Shown here piece by piece: positions 1,078 to 13,526 of a stretch of 20,000 bases of DNA. Both the position numbers and the translations under genes were made by a program. The stretch comes from an uncultured virus (IMG/VR IMGVR_UViG_3300029922_000048) (lineage: Duplodnaviria; Heunggongvirae; Uroviricota; Caudoviricetes). Within the stretch, counting starts at the first letter, position 1. Each line of letters starts with the position of its first letter. The DNA lies in the IMG/VR virus record IMGVR_UViG_3300029922_000048; one strand, 5' to 3'. Under the pieces are notes generated by a model that saw only the letters and a program-made list of their open reading frames with translations, had not been told where the DNA came from and ran no database searches.

Positions 1078-2190
1078 ATGCCCATAATTCCTCCCTCACG
1101 TCAGTTCGCCGGTTCCCAAGTGGATTCCAATGGCGAAGGTAAGTACATCAAGGACTCGATCCCGCAGCTGATCGTATCCACCAAGGTCAACACGGAAGGT
1201 GTCTTCACCCATTACCTGCCTAGCTACAAGCAGGACGCTACTGGCGCAGGCGTGTGGATGCACCAGTTCCAGATTCGAGGCAACTTTGGTACTGGAAACT
1301 TCAAGGAGAAGTACTACATCGCTCATGGAGCCAACGATCCGGTGGTTCACTTCGAGCGCAACTTCAAGTTCCGTTTCCCTGATCTCGCCAAGATAGGGGA
1401 AGAGATCAAGGAAGGCCGTAAGTTCCGCATCTATCCTCCCTACGGAAACATCTCGAAGCGTGTTGTCACCAACAACATCAATCGTAATGCTACCCAAGAA
1501 GGTATCATGGTGTTCGACGTACCGGCCTCCAATGCATTCAGTCAGATTCAGGACTACCACAACCGTCCCGGTTTCAACGGCGTACAGGCCCCGTTGGTCT
1601 GTGACCCCGATAATTGTGCACTCGTGTTCACGAAGTGCAAGAAGGACTCGGGTGGAGGTAATCCTTGGGTATTCCAGATTGATCTTAGCCCCGGCAGCGC
1701 CATTCAGCTCCCCGAAGCGCTCCGCGATTCCGATAATCTCCATAACCTGGACGATATCTTCATCGTCAAGACCAAGGAAGAGTTGATGGAGAAGCTTCGT
1801 ACGTTCTTCAACGGCGATGTCTTCGATCTGTGCATGCAGGGCTATCAGGGTCTGTTGGTCGGGTCGGTCCCCGGCTTCACCCCACCTACTGTTGCAGCAG
1901 CTCCTGTCTATGCGGCCCCAGTGGCCCCGGTGAGTGGCCTGGGAGCACCTGCGTTTAATCCTGCCAGCCTGGTGGTAACCAAGTCCCCGACGGCAGGTGG
2001 GGTGGCTCCCGCTCCTGCGGTGGCCCCTGTAGTGGCTCAGACTCCGGTGTACGCTGGAGTAGGTCAGCCTGCTGCCCCTCAGTCAGTACCGGTAGCCCCT
2101 GCCGAGCACATGGCCAACCCGATGGCGGGAACTGGTGCCCTCGACCTCGACGCAGCGATGAAGTTCTTGGGTAAGCCCAAGACTGCCTAG
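1078..2190 (+). CDS. hypothetical protein, possibly a phage ssDNA-binding protein with a Pro/Ala/Val-rich C-terminal tail
   Basis: A 370 aa ORF with biased codon usage: an aromatic-rich globular part of ~260 aa plus a low-complexity tail, directly upstream of the recombinase. The function is inferred from context only. Confidence 0.45.
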   Translation: MPIIPPSRQFAGSQVDSNGEGKYIKDSIPQLIVSTKVNTEGVFTHYLPSYKQDATGAGVWMHQFQIRGNFGTGNFKEKYYIAHGANDPVVHFERNFKFRFPDLAKIGEEIKEGRKFRIYPPYGNISKRVVTNNINRNATQEGIMVFDVPASNAFSQIQDYHNRPGFNGVQAPLVCDPDNCALVFTKCKKDSGGGNPWVFQIDLSPGSAIQLPEALRDSDNLHNLDDIFIVKTKEELMEKLRTFFNGDVFDLCMQGYQGLLVGSVPGFTPPTVAAAPVYAAPVAPVSGLGAPAFNPASLVVTKSPTAGGVAPAPAVAPVVAQTPVYAGVGQPAAPQSVPVAPAEHMANPMAGTGALDLDAAMKFLGKPKTA

Positions 2191-2197
2191 TAACCTT

Positions 2198-2230
2198 GAA
2201 GCCCTGGAGTTCAACCCTCCAGGGCTTCCA
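2198..2230 (+). promoter_or_regulatory. perfect 12-bp intergenic hairpin with a T-loop-like 7-nt loop
   Basis: GAAGCCCTGGAG-TTCAACC-CTCCAGGGCTTC-CA; no adjacent U-tract. Confidence 0.6.
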
Positions 2231-6377: not shown

Positions 6378-6406
6378 TTGGGGGGACCTGGAAAAGCTGG
6401 TATAAT
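6378..6406 (+). promoter_or_regulatory. sigma70-type promoter for the tmRNA/RNA island
   Basis: TTGGGG (6378-6383), 17 bp spacer, TATAAT (6401-6406) with an extended -10 TG at 6398-6399. A C(TTCG)G leader hairpin follows at 6424-6439. Confidence 0.7.
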
Positions 6407-6462
6407 ACATTACTGATATTTATCTGGCCTTCGGGCCAGTGTTTGTTAGTGTTAGTCAGACA

Positions 6463-6887
6463 GGGCCTGACAGGTTTCGACGGGAAATCGTTGAGGTTAA
6501 CTGCAAGCCGAGGAAGTCTGTTGTACTCGTTAAACCATGGGCAAAAAACAAACAACGTCACTGAAAACGTGACCCTTCGCAACGACGTACGTGTTGCTTC
6601 TCCTTCGGCTCCGGTCGAAGCGGAAGTGGCCCTCGCGTAATTGCGGAAGGTTCCAGCCCTCGCGGCTGGTGTGGTCAGGCAAGAGAGAAAGCTGTAACCT
6701 GACTGCATGTACATTGCAATTGCTACGCCAAAGGAATCCTAGTACCGGCGTTCAAGATACAAGGATAAGAGATCGATGAAGGGTTTTGCTGGTCCCATAT
6801 CGATCTTGTCGTACCAAAACTAGACAAGCTTGTAGACGTTAGCTAGATTATTTCTCGGACGCGGGGTTCAATTCCCCGCCAGGTCCA
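6463..6887 (+). ncRNA. ssrA: tmRNA
   Basis: 5' GGGCCTGACAGGTTTCGACGGG and 3' GGACGCGGGGTTCAATTCCCCGCCAGGTCCA. The acceptor stem GGGCCTG/CAGGTCC has a G3:U alanine identity pair and an A discriminator. An internal tag frame reads ...NVTLRNDVRVASPSAPVEAEVALA* (stop 6638-6640). Confidence 0.93.
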
Positions 6888-6895
6888 CTTTTTCC

Positions 6896-6924
6896 TTGCC
6901 AGCTCCATTATCTACTCATAAGAT
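6896..6924 (+). promoter_or_regulatory. sigma70-type promoter of the HNH gene (probably a leaderless transcript)
   Basis: TTGCCA (6896-6901), 17 bp spacer, TAAGAT (6919-6924); the predicted +1 falls at about the GTG start at 6931. Confidence 0.55.
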
Positions 6925-6930
6925 GATGGT

Positions 6931-7485
6931 GTGACTTGTATATGCGAAAATTGTAAAGAGCCTTTTGAAAAGAAAACATCTGAATTTAATAGAAGCAGCC
7001 GTCTTGGGCGTAAGCACTTCTGTAAGTTAAGTTGTTCAATATCATTTAGTAACTCGCACCCAAGTGAGTCACGCCGGGAATCTCAAAAACAGAATACTAA
7101 ACAATTAGTTCCAGGCAACCGAAAGGATTTGAACTCACCGTTTAAAACGCATTTTAAATCAGTTCAATACCGGATAAAGTATGCCGGAAAAACAGGAAAT
7201 GCTACTCTAGATGATCTTAGGAACCAGTGGGAATTGCAGGGCGGTTTGTGTCCGTTCACTAAGCTACCAATGTCTAATTATGACACGACTAAAAGCCGCA
7301 ACAAGTTTCCAGTAACACCGTACCGTGCTTCACTGGACAGAGCGGATTCCACAAAGGGATACGATGCTGACAACATTCAATTCATTTCTCTAATGGCAAA
7401 CTATGCGAAACACAGTTTTACATCTCAGGAGTTGATTGACTTTTGTCACGCAGTAGCGCAGGCTCATCCACGGAGCCATAGCTGA
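6931..7485 (+). CDS. free-standing HNH/His-Me-finger (homing-type) endonuclease with an N-terminal Cys4 zinc ribbon
   Basis: CENC...FCKLSC zinc ligands; QGGLCPFT...ASLDRADSTKGYDADNIQFISLMANYAK is the SLDR..GY..N..N HNH variant. Visibly more AT-rich than the flanking genes. Confidence 0.8.
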   Translation: MTCICENCKEPFEKKTSEFNRSSRLGRKHFCKLSCSISFSNSHPSESRRESQKQNTKQLVPGNRKDLNSPFKTHFKSVQYRIKYAGKTGNATLDDLRNQWELQGGLCPFTKLPMSNYDTTKSRNKFPVTPYRASLDRADSTKGYDADNIQFISLMANYAKHSFTSQELIDFCHAVAQAHPRSHS

Positions 7486-7547
7486 GTGGTAAGAGCACCC
7501 CGCTGTCTACGGGGAGATCATGGGTTCGATCCCCATTGGTTCCGCCA
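7472..7547 (+). tRNA. tRNA-Asp(GTC)
   Basis: Acceptor GGAGCCA/TGGTTCC, G discriminator and CCA; anticodon arm CCCCG-CT GTC TA-CGGGG; T arm ATGGG-TTCGATC-CCCAT. Confidence 0.93.
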
Positions 7548-7561
7548 TTTTTTTCACACAC

Positions 7562-7637
7562 GGCCCTATAGTGTAACGGTTCAGCACATCAGCTTTTCAA
7601 GCTGGGGGTCGGAGTTCAAGTCTCCGTGGGGCTACCA
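7562..7637 (+). tRNA. tRNA-Glu(TTC)
   Basis: Acceptor GGCCCTA/TGGGGCT followed by A-CCA; anticodon arm TCAGC-TT TTC AA-GCTGG; T arm CGGAG-TTCAAGT-CTCCG. Confidence 0.93.
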
Positions 7638-7654
7638 TTCACAATTCATGAATC

Positions 7655-7978
7655 ATGGAAATATCTCACATCAAACACTTTGTACGGGATAATAACCCGA
7701 TCAAGTTTCATCACTACTACAACGGTGTGTTCTACTACCACGTCGAAGACCTTGAGACCAAGATCGTCTACGAGGTACCGATCAGGCTCGAACCGAGTCT
7801 GATTCCCCCGACCCTTAATGCGGTCGATAAAGCGTTCTTCCACAAACGTCGTATCCAGCAGGCCATCGATGCTGGAACGCTCCGGAGGATCACTCCTACC
7901 CAGGAAGAGACCACTGCCGAGATCGTCGCATTGACAGCACACCTGCAGGACCTCGATCCCGCAACCAATCAAGTTTAA
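7655..7978 (+). CDS. hypothetical protein (107 aa) inside the RNA island
   Basis: An ATG-started ORF filling the gap between tRNA-Glu and the next structured RNA; codon usage resembles the other genes. Confidence 0.7.
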   Translation: MEISHIKHFVRDNNPIKFHHYYNGVFYYHVEDLETKIVYEVPIRLEPSLIPPTLNAVDKAFFHKRRIQQAIDAGTLRRITPTQEETTAEIVALTAHLQDLDPATNQV

Positions 7979-7979
7979 T

Positions 7980-8077
7980 GCTCAGTGGGCTGACCTCGTA
8001 GTATACGCCCCGTCTCTAGAGACGGTTGGGTCTCTGCGAGGTTGGGGCTAGGACGCCGTGCGTCCTCCCTGAGCGCC
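7980..8077 (+). ncRNA. tRNA-like structured RNA A (atypical)
   Basis: Terminal stem GCTCAG/CTGAGC followed by G-CC; a 5-bp/7-nt arm AGGAC-GCCGTGC-GTCCT in the T-arm position; central hairpin CCGTC-TCTAGA-GACGG; CTGACCTCGTAG can pair with CTGCGAGGTTGG. Confidence 0.5.
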
Positions 8078-8084
8078 TTTTTAT

Positions 8085-8185
8085 CCGAGGGTGGGCGAGC
8101 AGTGAAGCCACTTGGGAAACGGTACCGGTAACCCAAGCGCCGTGGGGCATTAACAACGCTGGTGCAACTTCAGCCCCGAGGACCA
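8085..8185 (+). tRNA. non-canonical tRNA-like RNA B with an enlarged anticodon loop
   Basis: Acceptor CCGAGGG/CCCGAGG (tandem G.A mismatch) followed by A-CCA; D stem GGC/GCC; CTTGGG-15 nt-CCCAAG arm; long variable region; T arm GCTGG-TGCAACT-TCAGC. Confidence 0.65.
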
Positions 8186-8343
8186 TTTCATTGTGCTGAC
8201 ACATGTCATCTACCTGGATCGAGCGAAGGAATCGTACTCACCAGGTCAGTACCAAGTAGGAAGTAGCATAATAATGCTTCCTACCGTAATAAGGGGTGGA
8301 CCTCCCAACACCTATAACGATTTCCAAGGGAGGCTTCGTTTTC

Positions 8344-8489
8344 GCAGGAGTGGTGAAATTGGTAGACACACAGGCTCCATGTCGCGATTTTAACAGCGTA
8401 ACCGCATCTCTCATACAGATGTTAAGCCGCAATGACGACTGAAGCCCGTGGATTTAAAATCCGTGCAGGTTCAAATCCTGCCTCCTGCA
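8344..8489 (+). tRNA. tRNA-Leu-type body with a 68-nt structured sequence in place of the anticodon loop (RNA C)
   Basis: Acceptor GCAGGAG/CTCCTGC with A73; D arm GTG-AAATTGGTAGA-CAC; anticodon stem CAGGC/GCCCG enclosing 8376-8443; variable arm GGAT-TTAAA-ATCC; T arm GCAGG-TTCAAAT-CCTGC. Confidence 0.85.
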
Positions 8490-8556
8490 CATCTTACGAC
8501 CCATCGGGAATCGCCTGACTGGACAGATCATCCAGCCTCCCCTAGGGTCATTTCTT

Positions 8557-8651
8557 CACGCCATAGTTTAGCTAGGATGTTCAACTTCGGTTGGATGGTC
8601 AAAACGCCGCCTCCTAGGGTGGAAAGGTAGGTTCGAGTCCTGCTGGTGTGT
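8557..8651 (+). tRNA. non-canonical tRNA E with a hairpin inserted in the D loop and a 6-nt anticodon loop
   Basis: Acceptor CACGCCA/TGGTGTG; D stem GTTT/AAAC enclosing 32 nt that include GTTCAAC-TTCG-GTTGGAT; anticodon arm CCGCC-TCCTAG-GGTGG; T arm GTAGG-TTCGAGT-CCTGC. Confidence 0.75.
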
Positions 8652-8664
8652 CTCTTTACAACTC

Positions 8665-8820
8665 CGTAGCTGCTCAGTAGGGTAGATCGTCGCCTAGGAT
8701 GCGTCCCCACTGAAGCTTTCACAGTACTGTGTGTTTCGCCTGTCCTTACTCTGGGTCGTTTCTCGATTTCCCGCCCCAGTGGTTTCCAGGTCTTTGGCAC
8801 AGTTGCTGGGCAGCTACGCC
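8665..8820 (+). ncRNA. unidentified ~155-nt structured RNA F
   Basis: 15-bp closing stem CGTAGCTGCTCAGTA/TGCTGGGCAGCTACG, whose two U:G pairs favour the + strand; inner helix CCACTG/CAGTGG. Confidence 0.6.
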
Positions 8821-8936
8821 CCTTTGCCGGTTAGTAAACCGGATGGTGGAATCGTGAGCCCGTGCATGCAGCGATAACGTTGAGGTTCATGCACACCTCG
8901 CGCCCTCTTGGTTGCTTAGTTGCCCAACTCGACCAA

Positions 8937-9020
8937 GCCCGCCCCTACTTTCTCTGGGGGCGGGCAAAACTTTACAACCTCCCCACCTTGATTCGAGGGT
9001 GGGGAGTGACCCTTTCTTTT
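8937..9020 (+). terminator. two GC-rich hairpins closing the RNA island (putative terminator or processing signal)
   Basis: GCCCGCCCCTA/TGGGGGCGGGC (8937-8965) and CTCCCCACCTT/AGGGTGGGGAG (8979-9006), followed by TTTCTTTT. Confidence 0.5.
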
Positions 9021-9027
9021 AACCCCT

Positions 9028-9768
9028 ATGCTCAACATCATCAAAAACCAGTTCAAAATCAATCCGGTTCGTCTCACCCGTCTCTTCACGTTCACATTCA
9101 GCTACATGTTCGCCTTCATGTTTTGGGCCTATGTCTACTCAGAGTTCCTTAGGATTGACCACACTGATCCATGGTATCAGCTTCCCTTCATATCTCTCTT
9201 GGCATCGGTTCTGATGTCCTATATCCCGATGGTATTCGGGGTGGTAGCACCCTGTGCGATCTTGGAGTCGGTGGTGGAGAATGGGTTGCGGCCCGGTATC
9301 CATCTATCCAGGAATTCGTGGTATAGTAGTATATTGGTAGGTGCCGAAAAGCCTGCCCGGACATTGTGTGGTCACTGCTGGCGTACACCGCCCCAGATGC
9401 TGCTCTCGCTGATGTTCTATCTGTTGTGCGCAATATTCATACCGGTGTGGTTCATCTTCAGGTTAGTGATCCTGATCCCCATCATTTTGGCCGGGTCATG
9501 GATTGTTAACCGAGTTATTGCAGATCGCCGCACTTTGTGGGAGGTATCGATAGACTGGCAAACCAACCCCGCCGAGGTGTTGACCGCTATCCCGCGTTAC
9601 ATCCCTAAGAAACCCTCCAGTAGTGAGCCCACCAAGTTCCAGATCGTGGTCGAGAACTTCTTCTCCAAGGTGGCGGAAGTCCTGGTCGCCACCAAGCAAC
9701 GTGCTTGCCCCCGCATTGACTGGAAATACGATTACGAAAAATTCGACTCCTCAAATGACCCTCGATAA
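9028..9768 (+). CDS. multi-pass membrane protein of unknown function
   Basis: About four hydrophobic segments; a CGHC motif. Confidence 0.75.
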   Translation: MLNIIKNQFKINPVRLTRLFTFTFSYMFAFMFWAYVYSEFLRIDHTDPWYQLPFISLLASVLMSYIPMVFGVVAPCAILESVVENGLRPGIHLSRNSWYSSILVGAEKPARTLCGHCWRTPPQMLLSLMFYLLCAIFIPVWFIFRLVILIPIILAGSWIVNRVIADRRTLWEVSIDWQTNPAEVLTAIPRYIPKKPSSSEPTKFQIVVENFFSKVAEVLVATKQRACPRIDWKYDYEKFDSSNDPR

Positions 9769-12158: not shown

Positions 12159-12203
12159 ATGCATAGTACATTGCAACCCACACTCAAACAAAAGAAGACA
12201 TCA

Positions 12204-13526
12204 ATGATGAACCATCGAGCACACATCTTAGTCGGCCTCGGATTCGGGGACGAAGGGAAGGGTACCATGACAGACTGGTTCTGTCGGGAATCGAAGCCGA
12301 ATTTGGTCGTGCGTTACAATGGTGGAGCGCAATGCGGGCATAATGTCATTACTCCAGAAGGTAAGCATCATTGTTTCAGCCAGTACGGTTCCGGTACTCT
12401 AGCGGGCGTCGATACGCTCCTTTCTAAGTTCATGATGGTTAATATGTACAGCTTGGCCCACGAGGCAGCCTATTTGGCTCCCCTCTACCCCGACAAGAAT
12501 CCGGTCGATATGGTGATGATCGACGGGCGAGCCCCTATCCTGACCCCCTACCATGTGATGGCCAACCAGTTGAAGGAGTTCATGCGCGGCAATGCTCGCC
12601 ATGGCTCCTGTGGGAAGGGAATAGGCGAACTCGGGTACGACATGGTCCACCACCCCGACGAAGTCCTCCATGCAATGGACCTCAGGGATCAAGACAAGAC
12701 TCTCGATACCCTGCAGCGCATCCGTGCCAGGAAGACTCACGACCTCATCATGATGGGGATCGGGAATCTTCCCATGAACCACAAGCTGTCCCAGATATTC
12801 CGCAAGGAATTCGAAGAGCGAAAGGGTGTGGAGGACGCTGCAATCTTGCTCAAGATCGCTAATCGCTACAATATCCTGGAACCGGACCGGGTCAATGACC
12901 TGGTCCGTACCAGCGATGTCGTGATGGAAGGAGCCCAGGGGGTACTGCTGGATGAATGGAAGGGCTTCCACCCCCACACCACGTGGTCCAACATTACGGT
13001 CGAGAACGCCTACGCGATCCTGACTGAGGCGAGATGGTCGGGCGAGATCGAAACCACCGGCATTATCAGAGCCTACGCAACACGTCACGGGGCGGGACCC
13101 TTTCCCTCCCACCAAGACGGGATGCTCAAGATCAACCCACTTGAGCATAACCAACGCAACGACTTCCAGGGTTCCTTCCGAGTGGGGGACTTTGACTTCG
13201 TGCTGTTCGACTACGCTTGCCGTTGTATCCCACAGCTAACCAACATCGCGTTCACGCACGCCGATATGGTGGATAGACTGACGGGTGTCTGCTGGTCCTA
13301 TCAGTTCGACAATGGGAAGCAGCTCGACACTCTACAACTTAGCTCGGGTCATGATCTGTCCCACCAGACCACCCTGAACGACACACTCACGCGCGTGAAA
13401 GCCCTCCGGACCGCCCCACCTTCCGGTGGTCTCGATGGCTTGATCGATGCAGTAAAGACTTGCGCCAACAGACCTGTTGCCTACATTTCCTCAGGTCCTA
13501 CAGCGCATACAAAGCAGCGATGCTAA
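12204..13526 (+). CDS. divergent adenylosuccinate-synthetase (PurA)-family protein
   Basis: VGLGFGDEGKG, VRYNGGAQCGH, EGAQGVLLD, YATRHGAGPFP, THAD and YISSGP. The start is probably ATG 12204 or 12207. Confidence 0.88.
   Translation: MMNHRAHILVGLGFGDEGKGTMTDWFCRESKPNLVVRYNGGAQCGHNVITPEGKHHCFSQYGSGTLAGVDTLLSKFMMVNMYSLAHEAAYLAPLYPDKNPVDMVMIDGRAPILTPYHVMANQLKEFMRGNARHGSCGKGIGELGYDMVHHPDEVLHAMDLRDQDKTLDTLQRIRARKTHDLIMMGIGNLPMNHKLSQIFRKEFEERKGVEDAAILLKIANRYNILEPDRVNDLVRTSDVVMEGAQGVLLDEWKGFHPHTTWSNITVENAYAILTEARWSGEIETTGIIRAYATRHGAGPFPSHQDGMLKINPLEHNQRNDFQGSFRVGDFDFVLFDYACRCIPQLTNIAFTHADMVDRLTGVCWSYQFDNGKQLDTLQLSSGHDLSHQTTLNDTLTRVKALRTAPPSGGLDGLIDAVKTCANRPVAYISSGPTAHTKQRC

Follow-up and report, generated by a model that had tools for sequence, protein, structure and literature searches.

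What does a phage do with genes that are shaped like transfer RNA (tRNA) and that, as encoded, cannot decode? The question is raised by positions 7980-9020 of a 20,000-nucleotide (nt) stretch of DNA, the whole of which is called the window below, from an uncultured virus of the Caudoviricetes (IMG/VR record IMGVR_UViG_3300029922_000048). Two elements of this kilobase, here called C and E, are tRNA-derived: all the parts that are touched by tRNA-handling enzymes are kept, and the decoding end is disabled as encoded. The reading favoured here, to which a probability of roughly 0.45 is given, is that C and E are processed, non-decoding tRNA-shaped RNAs. It is preferred to pseudogenes and to introns because the frames are intact, the inserts lie at tolerated positions and the design recurs in other viral DNA, with tandem arrays and covariation. 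The features that carry this reading are the following.

8344-8489, plus strand: element C, a leucine-type (class II) tRNA frame of 146 nt (Rfam tRNA 37.5 bits, E 5.1e-6; gathering score 29)

8371-8448, plus strand: extended arm of element C, about 24-25 bp, unbranched, with small internal loops (minimum free energy, MFE, -19.7 kcal/mol)

8557-8652, plus strand: element E, a class I tRNA frame (Rfam tRNA match at 8557-8651, E 7.3e-4, its 29.7 bits just above the gathering score of 29)

The acceptor, T and D stems of element C are paired at 7/7, 5/5 and 3/3 positions, and U8, a leucine-type D arm, the T loop UUCAAAU, A73 and a variable arm of 16 nt (8449-8464) are all present. In place of the 7-nt anticodon loop there is an insert of 68 nt (8376-8443), closed by an anticodon stem (CAGGC/GCCCG) whose one A.C mismatch is the sole mismatch outside the lesion. 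The tip of the resulting extended arm (8404-8422) consists of a 6-bp stem and the 7-nt loop CUCAUAC, a canonical anticodon-type stem-loop with CAU, which stands about 20 bp too far out compared with the normal anticodon position. The extended arm has a z score of -2.15 (6/200 shuffles are as stable) and the whole element one of -2.79. When the insert was deleted in silico in 192 ways, 151 of the products were called as tRNA and the best scored 116.2 with ARAGORN, near the working tRNA-Asp (118.6) and tRNA-Glu (116.0) of the same cluster, implying that the frame is undamaged. Element C is also the only long element of the window that passes the strict frame detector described below. Like the rest of 7980-9020 it does not match the model of transfer-messenger RNA (tmRNA), and it has no reading frame and no pseudoknots.

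The intact frame of C invites a reading in which C, and perhaps E, are intron-containing pre-tRNAs from which a phage or host pathway excises the inserts and rejoins the halves to give decoding tRNAs; ARAGORN in its intron mode (-i) indeed takes C as a tRNA with a 63-nt intron (108.4). However, none of the 192 deletion variants has a leucine anticodon in a canonical 7-nt loop and the best carry CCA, CGA or UGA, so that excision would at best give a Leu-type body the anticodon of Trp or Ser. At a permissive threshold (E<=10) the Rfam scan of 7900-9100 finds no group I intron core and no ribozyme family, self-cleaving ones included, and the 68 nt of the insert are far below the size of group I introns, which usually have 200 nt or more. 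No 3-4-3 bulge-helix-bulge is seen in the predicted fold of C, although inspection by eye is a weak test. The variable arm of C (8449-8464) also allows another fold, a stem of 5 bp with UUUAAAA as its loop, which would be the textbook anticodon loop of tRNA-Leu(UAA). As an anticodon arm it would leave 0-1 nt before the T arm, and a viral element (L059) has the same UGG...CCGU as an ordinary variable arm; the UUUAAAA loop is therefore treated as a coincidence.

Element E has no stem mismatch at all (acceptor 7/7, D 4/4 with GUUU/AAAC, anticodon stem 5/5, T 5/5) and has U8-A9, a 4-nt variable loop, the T loop UUCGAGU and U as the discriminator. It carries two lesions. The anticodon loop has 6 nt, UCCUAG (8613-8618), and the D loop contains a hairpin of ~22 nt (about 8576-8601), preceded by AGG, a possible G18-G19, and ending in a C(UUCG)G tip hairpin (8583-8594). 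With the ~22 nt deleted in silico E scores 110.4 with ARAGORN and the 6-nt loop is flagged; removal of the D-loop hairpin would thus not mend the decoding end, which also speaks against an intron. Because of its irregular D arm E fails the strict frame detector. Two other interpretations of this DNA were rejected: a class II 'tRNA-Ser(GGA)' is poor (100.7, D stem unpaired), and the ARAGORN call of a 'tRNA-Pro' with a 69-nt intron at 8488-8652 takes the T arm of E with a 6/7 acceptor, whereas the own acceptor of E pairs at 7/7. A canonical anticodon loop (7 nt, U33, purine 37, 5-bp stem) is absent at the normal position in both C (68 nt) and E (6 nt). Both inserts lie at positions where the L-shape tolerates extra RNA, the anticodon end in C and the variable pocket of the D loop in E. 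Neither insert has a second copy elsewhere in the 20 kb.

An earlier note, made from the letters of the window alone, had described four tRNA-like elements (A, B, C and E) that keep the tRNA body, pair well in their stems and remodel the anticodon arm. That description holds for C in every part, the variable arm included. It holds for the acceptor, D and T stems of E, whose large insert lies outside the anticodon arm; the C(UUCG)G hairpin that had been counted among the inserts is real and belongs to the D loop of E. It fails for A, which has no D arm and no T-loop motif, and is unsupported for B, whose fold is not more stable than shuffles; neither is found by the Rfam tRNA model at E<=10. 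The loop sizes given there for C, E and B (68, 6 and 15 nt) are correct. The checks proposed at the time, Infernal/Rfam and ARAGORN -i, support C by both programs and E by Rfam; B reaches only 88, inside noise, and A is not found by the Rfam tRNA model.

The same layout was searched for in other DNA with two patterns. The leucine-type pattern places a T loop 82-108 nt beyond a leucine-type D loop, where a normal gene has ~40 nt between them, and the class I pattern combines a common class I D arm with a 55-85-nt gap to the T loop. The two scans of viral contigs covered 18 and 19 of the 64 parts of the collection, which makes their counts lower bounds, and both samples are pre-selected by the patterns and carry no information on the overall frequency among phage tRNAs. 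The leucine-type scan gave at least 115 loci, and the estimate for the complete collection is ~430 such stretches. The outer acceptor stem is paired in 90 of the 116 matches listed (85 at 7/7, 5 at 6/7); two of the 90 are two adjacent normal tRNAs and the rest are single genes of 130-157 nt. Twenty sampled loci score 31-47 bits with the Rfam tRNA model and match no ribozyme family. The class I scan likewise gave at least 115 loci (estimate ~410), with paired outer stems in 85 of the 116 matches listed, 83 of which contain no normal tRNA; over both scans this makes 175 of 232 matches with paired outer acceptor stems. Among 72 distinct class I elements, eight are tRNA-Tyr with the usual eukaryote-type intron position, and some of these eight are from contigs labelled giant-virus genomes.

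A strict detector demands a 7/7 acceptor stem, a 5/5 T stem, the T-loop motif, U8 and a D stem with a loop holding A14 and GG. Across 177 kb of viral DNA (230 loci) it picks out 130 long elements, of 95-170 nt, besides 116 normal tRNAs, and neither kind appears in shuffled copies. Two or more long elements stand in tandem in 23 loci, up to three in a row and 6-8 nt apart. In one family (23 loci, 19 distinct sequences) the acceptor, D and T arms are identical and the centres of 77-97 nt are unrelated, and between two members the closing helix of the centre differs by compensatory changes. This family is leucine-type, with the acceptor AGUCAGG, AU-rich centres and no canonical anticodon loop in any member. 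A second family keeps a 95-nt centre with covarying pairs, although in one member the shared frame encloses another centre. The members of the AGUCAGG family include many loci (L010, L011, L018, L032, L053, L060, L065, L067, L071, L078, L096, L109, L112, L113, L122 and others). Among 79 distinct leucine-type elements, just 9 have a canonical anticodon stem-loop anywhere (mean 2.9 and maximum 7 in shuffles), which counts against the intron reading, and three of the nine have a leucine anticodon (shuffles: mean 0.4). The layout of C, one unbranched extended arm with a short variable arm, recurs in 7 of 78 other leucine-type elements. When one viral long element was compared with cultured phages by blastn, only 33 nt of a T arm matched. 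Judged by these sequences, insert-bearing tRNA frames are common in phage DNA and form a real class that extends beyond this locus. Element C falls within the broad class: it is encoded by a phage, none of its acceptor, D and T arms is damaged, and the additional sequence between its D and T arms is within the range of 30-80 nt.

In bacterial and archaeal genomes the leucine pattern finds 120 loci, 44 of them with paired outer stems. Half of the latter (22/44) are a partial 5' copy beside a normal tRNA-Leu, and the other half (22/44) are long tRNA-like genes, for example in cyanobacteria. Related leucine-type tRNA-like genes of 133-136 nt occur in Trichormus, Nostoc and a Prochloron-like cyanobacterium (L133, L194, L221, L161), showing that the insert layout is found in cellular genomes as well. 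In several Flavobacteriia a partial copy of the 5' part of tRNA-Leu (acceptor strand and D arm) lies ~55 nt upstream of a complete tRNA-Leu(CAA) (L123, L124, L136, L147, L158, L174, L182, L208 and others) and looks like a duplication scar.

One kind of insert could be defined as a module. The motif CAGCAA is present in 46 of 127 distinct long elements (ACAGCAA in 36/127), and in 43 of the 46 a hairpin of 5-9 bp lies 2-5 nt upstream of it. The module consists of an A-rich linker, a covarying hairpin of 6-9 bp, 2-4 nt and CAGCAA, and forms an insert of ~40 nt that lies 5' of the anticodon loop, often in tandem arrays (loci L247-L357, for example L328:95-369 on the minus strand and L248:292-540 and L266:172-412 on the plus strand). 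Over 35 distinct rows 93.8% of the cells are paired, compared with 62.4% in shuffles and 32-45% with slid partners; the rows were picked by the presence of the hairpin, which inflates this percentage but not the number of pair types. Double changes occur at 7/7 pairs, and 0/500 shuffles reach the observed score. Literature searches returned no description of the module. In one locus (L069:1-382, plus strand) a ROOL RNA, truncated by the end of the locus (Rfam 256.8 bits), is the immediate upstream neighbour of a long leucine-type tRNA-like gene with the CAGCAA module.

If C and E are processed, non-decoding RNAs, they would be transcribed together with the real tRNAs of the cluster, freed by RNase P and 3' trimming, and CCA-tailed. 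C would perhaps also be charged by leucyl-tRNA synthetase, an enzyme that needs no anticodon. Both would then persist as tRNA-shaped RNAs unable to decode, as local cases of a large and mixed phage gene population in which a tRNA frame is combined with an insert. The insert may act as bait for tRNA-cutting defences, as a sink for tRNA enzymes or as a carried small RNA. The idea of a scaffold receives indirect support from comparison, since there appear to be hundreds of viral tRNA frames with 30-80-nt inserts, in some families of which an invariant frame surrounds unrelated centres; the roles as decoy, as inhibitor of tRNA-targeting defences or as aminoacyl donor, also proposed in the earlier note, are speculative. 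A broader version, which is put forward tentatively, is that C and E function as part of a phage RNA class, widespread and all but undescribed, in which the frame is a stable chassis for an exchangeable, non-decoding insert. Through the frame the RNA would then be open to RNase P, to 3' trimming, to CCA addition and, where the frame is leucine-type, to charging that is independent of the anticodon. C, as its modelled fold suggests, would show a look-alike of a CAU stem-loop on a stalk of ~25 bp, which could bait or block host enzymes whose targets are anticodon loops or the ends of tRNAs, among them defence nucleases and modification enzymes.

The other parts of the gene cluster are listed here.

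6463-6890, plus strand: tmRNA-like gene of 428 nt (Rfam RF00023, 101.4 bits where the gathering score is 47, full-length match to model positions 1-374)

6931-7485, plus strand: HNH/endonuclease VII-like open reading frame (ORF) of 184 amino acids (PHROG 3322 endonuclease, 7e-19; PHROG 1035 endonuclease VII, 1e-13)

7472-7547, plus strand: normal tRNA-Asp(GUC) with encoded CCA (ARAGORN 118.6; Rfam 61.5 bits)

7562-7637, plus strand: normal tRNA-Glu(UUC) with encoded CCA (ARAGORN 116.0; Rfam 62.1 bits)

7655-7978, plus strand: ORF of 107 amino acids between tRNA-Glu and element A (a single homologue, at 97% identity, among 5.8 billion proteins)

7980-8077, plus strand: element A, a Y-shaped fold in which a 6+2-bp closing stem surrounds two hairpins, a long one and one of 7 bp; GCC and a U run come next

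8085-8185, plus strand: element B, weakly cloverleaf-like, with tandem G.A pairs in the acceptor stem, a T-like arm with the loop UGCAACU, A73 and encoded CCA

8186-8343, plus strand: spacer with three hairpins, including one of 10 bp at ~8256-8284 (fold z -1.86; Rfam match at chance level only, E 2.8)

8490-8556, plus strand: spacer between C and E with a modest hairpin (z -1.13)

8653-8935, plus strand: stretch F, structured and non-coding (fold z -0.45 and -1.78; no Rfam match)

8937-9020, plus strand: a pair of strong hairpins rich in GC, at 8937-8965 and 8979-9006, with a U-rich tail behind them (MFE -46.3 kcal/mol, z -6.46, 0/200 shuffles as stable)

The tmRNA-like gene opens a cluster of small-RNA genes on the same strand; ARAGORN did not call it at default or lowered thresholds. 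Between it and tRNA-Asp lies the HNH/endonuclease VII-like ORF, which covers the first 14 nt of the tRNA; homing endonucleases are described, in the part of one source that deals with them, as typical inhabitants of tRNA arrays (PMC8421152), with which this ORF agrees. In default mode ARAGORN calls only tRNA-Asp and tRNA-Glu in the window, and Rfam at its gathering threshold adds the tmRNA and the 146-nt match at 8344-8489 to these two. The earlier note had placed the array downstream of a normal tRNA-Asp and tRNA-Glu. Both are normal, and the array does not directly follow them, since the ORF at 7655-7978, which has no family in the Pfam or PHROG scans, lies between. Two further observations of the note are borne out: about 1 kb lacks a credible ORF (none of 100 or more amino acids in 7980-9020, and nine small ones of 53-96 amino acids without any PHROG family match), and a U/C-rich spacer follows each element. 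The kilobase may thus be the tail of a phage small-RNA operon that would consist of tmRNA, homing-type endonuclease, tRNA-Asp, tRNA-Glu, small ORF and then 7980-9020, closed by the two terminator-like hairpins.

Only C and E are matched to tRNA in the permissive Rfam scan; the other five matches have E values of 0.097-6.4, which is chance level. Element A is, as modelled, not a tRNA but a separate stable three-way fold (MFE -50.6 kcal/mol, z -3.5, 0/200 shuffles as stable). The MFE fold of B is a cloverleaf with a 15-nt loop on a 6-bp stem, but its stability does not exceed that of shuffles (z +0.28 and +0.82), and its ARAGORN score of 88.0 appears at the 80% threshold only, inside the noise of the 99 calls made in the window at that threshold. 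The 5' part of F (~8665-8705) resembles, by eye and with no tool support, a damaged 5' half of a tRNA. Membership of the tRNA-derived set is demonstrated neither for A and B nor for the remaining spacers; B and the 5' portion of F have the look of eroded tRNA genes. A bacterial Y RNA, or a tRNA mimic of the YrlA type, was considered too. A YrlA-type mimic combines a tRNA-like module with a Ro-binding stem and has its gene beside that of the TROVE protein Rsr; 7900-9100 has no Rfam match to such an RNA, and no TROVE-domain protein is found among the 24 ORFs compared with Pfam.

The window itself is phage DNA, as had been supposed, and is a novel sequence from a peat metagenome with no close relative. 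Its proteins, from 20 ORFs compared with PHROG and 24 with Pfam, include a UvsX/RecA-like recombinase, a Holliday-junction resolvase, an AAA ATPase, an HNH/endonuclease VII-like protein, a kinase and a PurZ-type adenylosuccinate synthetase (12159-13526, plus strand; PHROG 1211, 2.7e-74). The PurZ gene hints at a genome with 2-aminoadenine (Z). Elsewhere in the window, right after the ORF at 1078-2190, a perfect 12-bp hairpin with a T-loop-like loop (2160-2228, plus strand) is called 'tRNA-Pyl' by ARAGORN at lowered thresholds (89.1) and is probably a terminator.

Several observations weigh against C and E being processed RNAs. Neither encodes the CCA that is present in both working tRNAs and in B, and the neighbours B and F look degenerate, as they would in a decaying array. 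The fold of E (z -1.93) is near the range of tRNA-Asp and tRNA-Glu (-0.63 and -1.42). In the viral sample, five loci (L059, L069, L076, L062 and L070) have an intact UAA or AAG loop directly beside the insert, which suits removable introns better than cargo; it is therefore likely that some inserts of the class are removable and others permanent. Run over the whole window with filters off, a covariance model of the CAGCAA module (R1) gives eight matches (E 3.6-8.2), none of them inside 7980-9020, which leaves C outside the hairpin-CAGCAA family and a member of the broad class only; the same model matches just 1 of 100 leucine-type loci.

The locus also stands alone, as no relative of 7980-9020 was found in any of the collections searched (phage records, IMG/VR and protein sets). 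A blastn search of 6400-9100 against 50,697 phage records matches only at tRNA-Glu, IMG/VR scans with four neighbouring proteins give one weak match of 25 residues, and a scan of IMG/VR with an 18-nt piece of the insert tip of C gives 0 matches. The flanking ORFs are orphans, one protein search returning the 97% homologue on a 929-bp contig and the other the query alone, and tblastn with two window proteins finds distant phage matches only (24-37% identity), with no family placement. Scans with PurZ reach relatives at 34-48% identity only (L002, L003, L004, L005, L007), and these distant relatives hold up to 30 ordinary tRNAs directly downstream of PurZ and no long ones. The window sequence is present in 24 peat-metagenome runs, none of which is an RNA run. 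Contigs of four runs are identical to the window barring a patch of six substitutions and are silent on constraint. The patch occupies 34 nt of the small ORF (7704-7737) in one run, whose contig is identical over its other 744 nt, and looks from the sequence like a small recombination patch.

One alternative concerns parts of the kilobase other than C and E. There is about an even chance that A and the terminal hairpins are ordinary cis elements rather than RNAs in their own right, serving the upstream ORF and the tRNA operon as terminators or as structures for processing and stability. A begins 2 nt past the stop codon of the ORF at 7655-7978 and is followed by a U run, and the hairpins at 8937-9006 are very stable, precede a U-rich tail and include a called terminator-like site (8995-9014), so that they are the probable end of the transcription unit as far as the modelled folds go. 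On the other hand A is branched, unlike typical intrinsic terminators, and tRNA-derived C and E are left unexplained.

A decaying tRNA array is a less probable account, and one that we regard as doubtful. Here the phage lineage would formerly have possessed many tRNA genes at this place, B, F, E and C would be pseudogenes at different stages of decay and the inserts recent mutational accidents without function. The cloverleaf-like B that is statistically noise, the half-tRNA seen by eye in F, the missing CCA of C and E next to tRNA-Asp and tRNA-Glu that encode it, the two separate lesions of E and the 30-tRNA arrays beside PurZ in distant relatives are all in its favour. Yet outside the lesions there is one mismatch in C, in the anticodon stem, and none in E, and both inserts form helices at structurally tolerated positions. 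Decay does not predict that the layout recurs in hundreds of viral frames, with faultless acceptor stems, in tandem and with covariation in the inserts. Phages, moreover, seldom keep a kilobase of junk, although a genome of 78 kb or more could do so.

The removable intron, for all the intact UAA and AAG loops beside some viral inserts, is improbable, since besides the points given above the tmRNA gene marks a bacterial host and bacteria, to our knowledge, have no splicing endonuclease.

Among known systems the closest resemblance is to Lak megaphages, the one report of such genes found in a full-text literature search for short phage tRNA introns. In the passages concerned, Devoto et al. 2019 (PMC6784885) state that Lak tRNAs 'contain enigmatic introns' and that phage tRNA introns were previously unreported. 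As described there, the Lak genes share with C an excess length, an insert predicted at the anticodon loop and a lack of fit to any known splicing mechanism, and they lend the intron reading some support; one Lak insert is said possibly to encode a tRNA-like piece, and the insert of C ends in an anticodon-like stem-loop. The Lak phages are gut phages of ~540 kb with an alternative genetic code, whereas the phage studied here is from peat and uses the standard code, and there is no sequence relation. The D-loop hairpin and the 6-nt loop of E have no counterpart in those passages.

Other parallels are more partial. The T4 tRNA region contains RNAC and RNAD, which are described in the relevant parts of two papers as small stable RNAs of unknown role, co-transcribed with the cluster (PMC3014915, PMC9697503); they resemble C and E as small RNAs inside a phage tRNA cluster and show no sequence similarity in the blastn search of 6400-9100. 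The tmRNA, whose gene lies 1.5 kb upstream, shares with C a tRNA-like acceptor/T domain and the replacement of the anticodon arm by a long irregular helix; unlike tmRNA, C has a complete D arm as well as the variable arm of class II, and lacks a reading frame and pseudoknots. Group I introns, as in tRNA-Leu(UAA) in the portion of the source consulted (PMC3984707), are also anticodon-loop inserts in leucine-type tRNA genes of bacteria and phages, but the insert of C is of 68 nt and has neither a group I core nor an Rfam match. Theta (HDV-like) ribozymes adjoin phage tRNAs and are thought, according to the pertinent passages of PMC10879173, to aid their maturation; they too are small structured RNAs packed against phage tRNAs, but stand just 3' of the tRNA and not inside it, and no HDV-type family is matched in 7900-9100 by the Rfam models, as distinct from the descriptor of the theta authors. 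The hairpin-CAGCAA module, finally, is likewise an insert in otherwise intact phage tRNA frames and often in tandem, but is not carried by C or E.

The usual explanations for tRNA genes in phages are codon usage and the replacement of tRNAs that host defences have cut. If phages encode tRNA frames that do not decode, there would be a second use of the tRNA shape, as a self-processing and stable carrier or as a decoy. The counts suggest that standard annotation overlooks hundreds of such genes, which ARAGORN misses in its default mode. Whichever reading holds, the oddity of the 'enigmatic introns' of Lak phages can now be tested with many sequences and a covarying module. Should the frame prove to be a chassis for exchangeable inserts, the tandem arrays would be a phage toolkit for counter-defence or host takeover, distinct from ordinary phage tRNAs.

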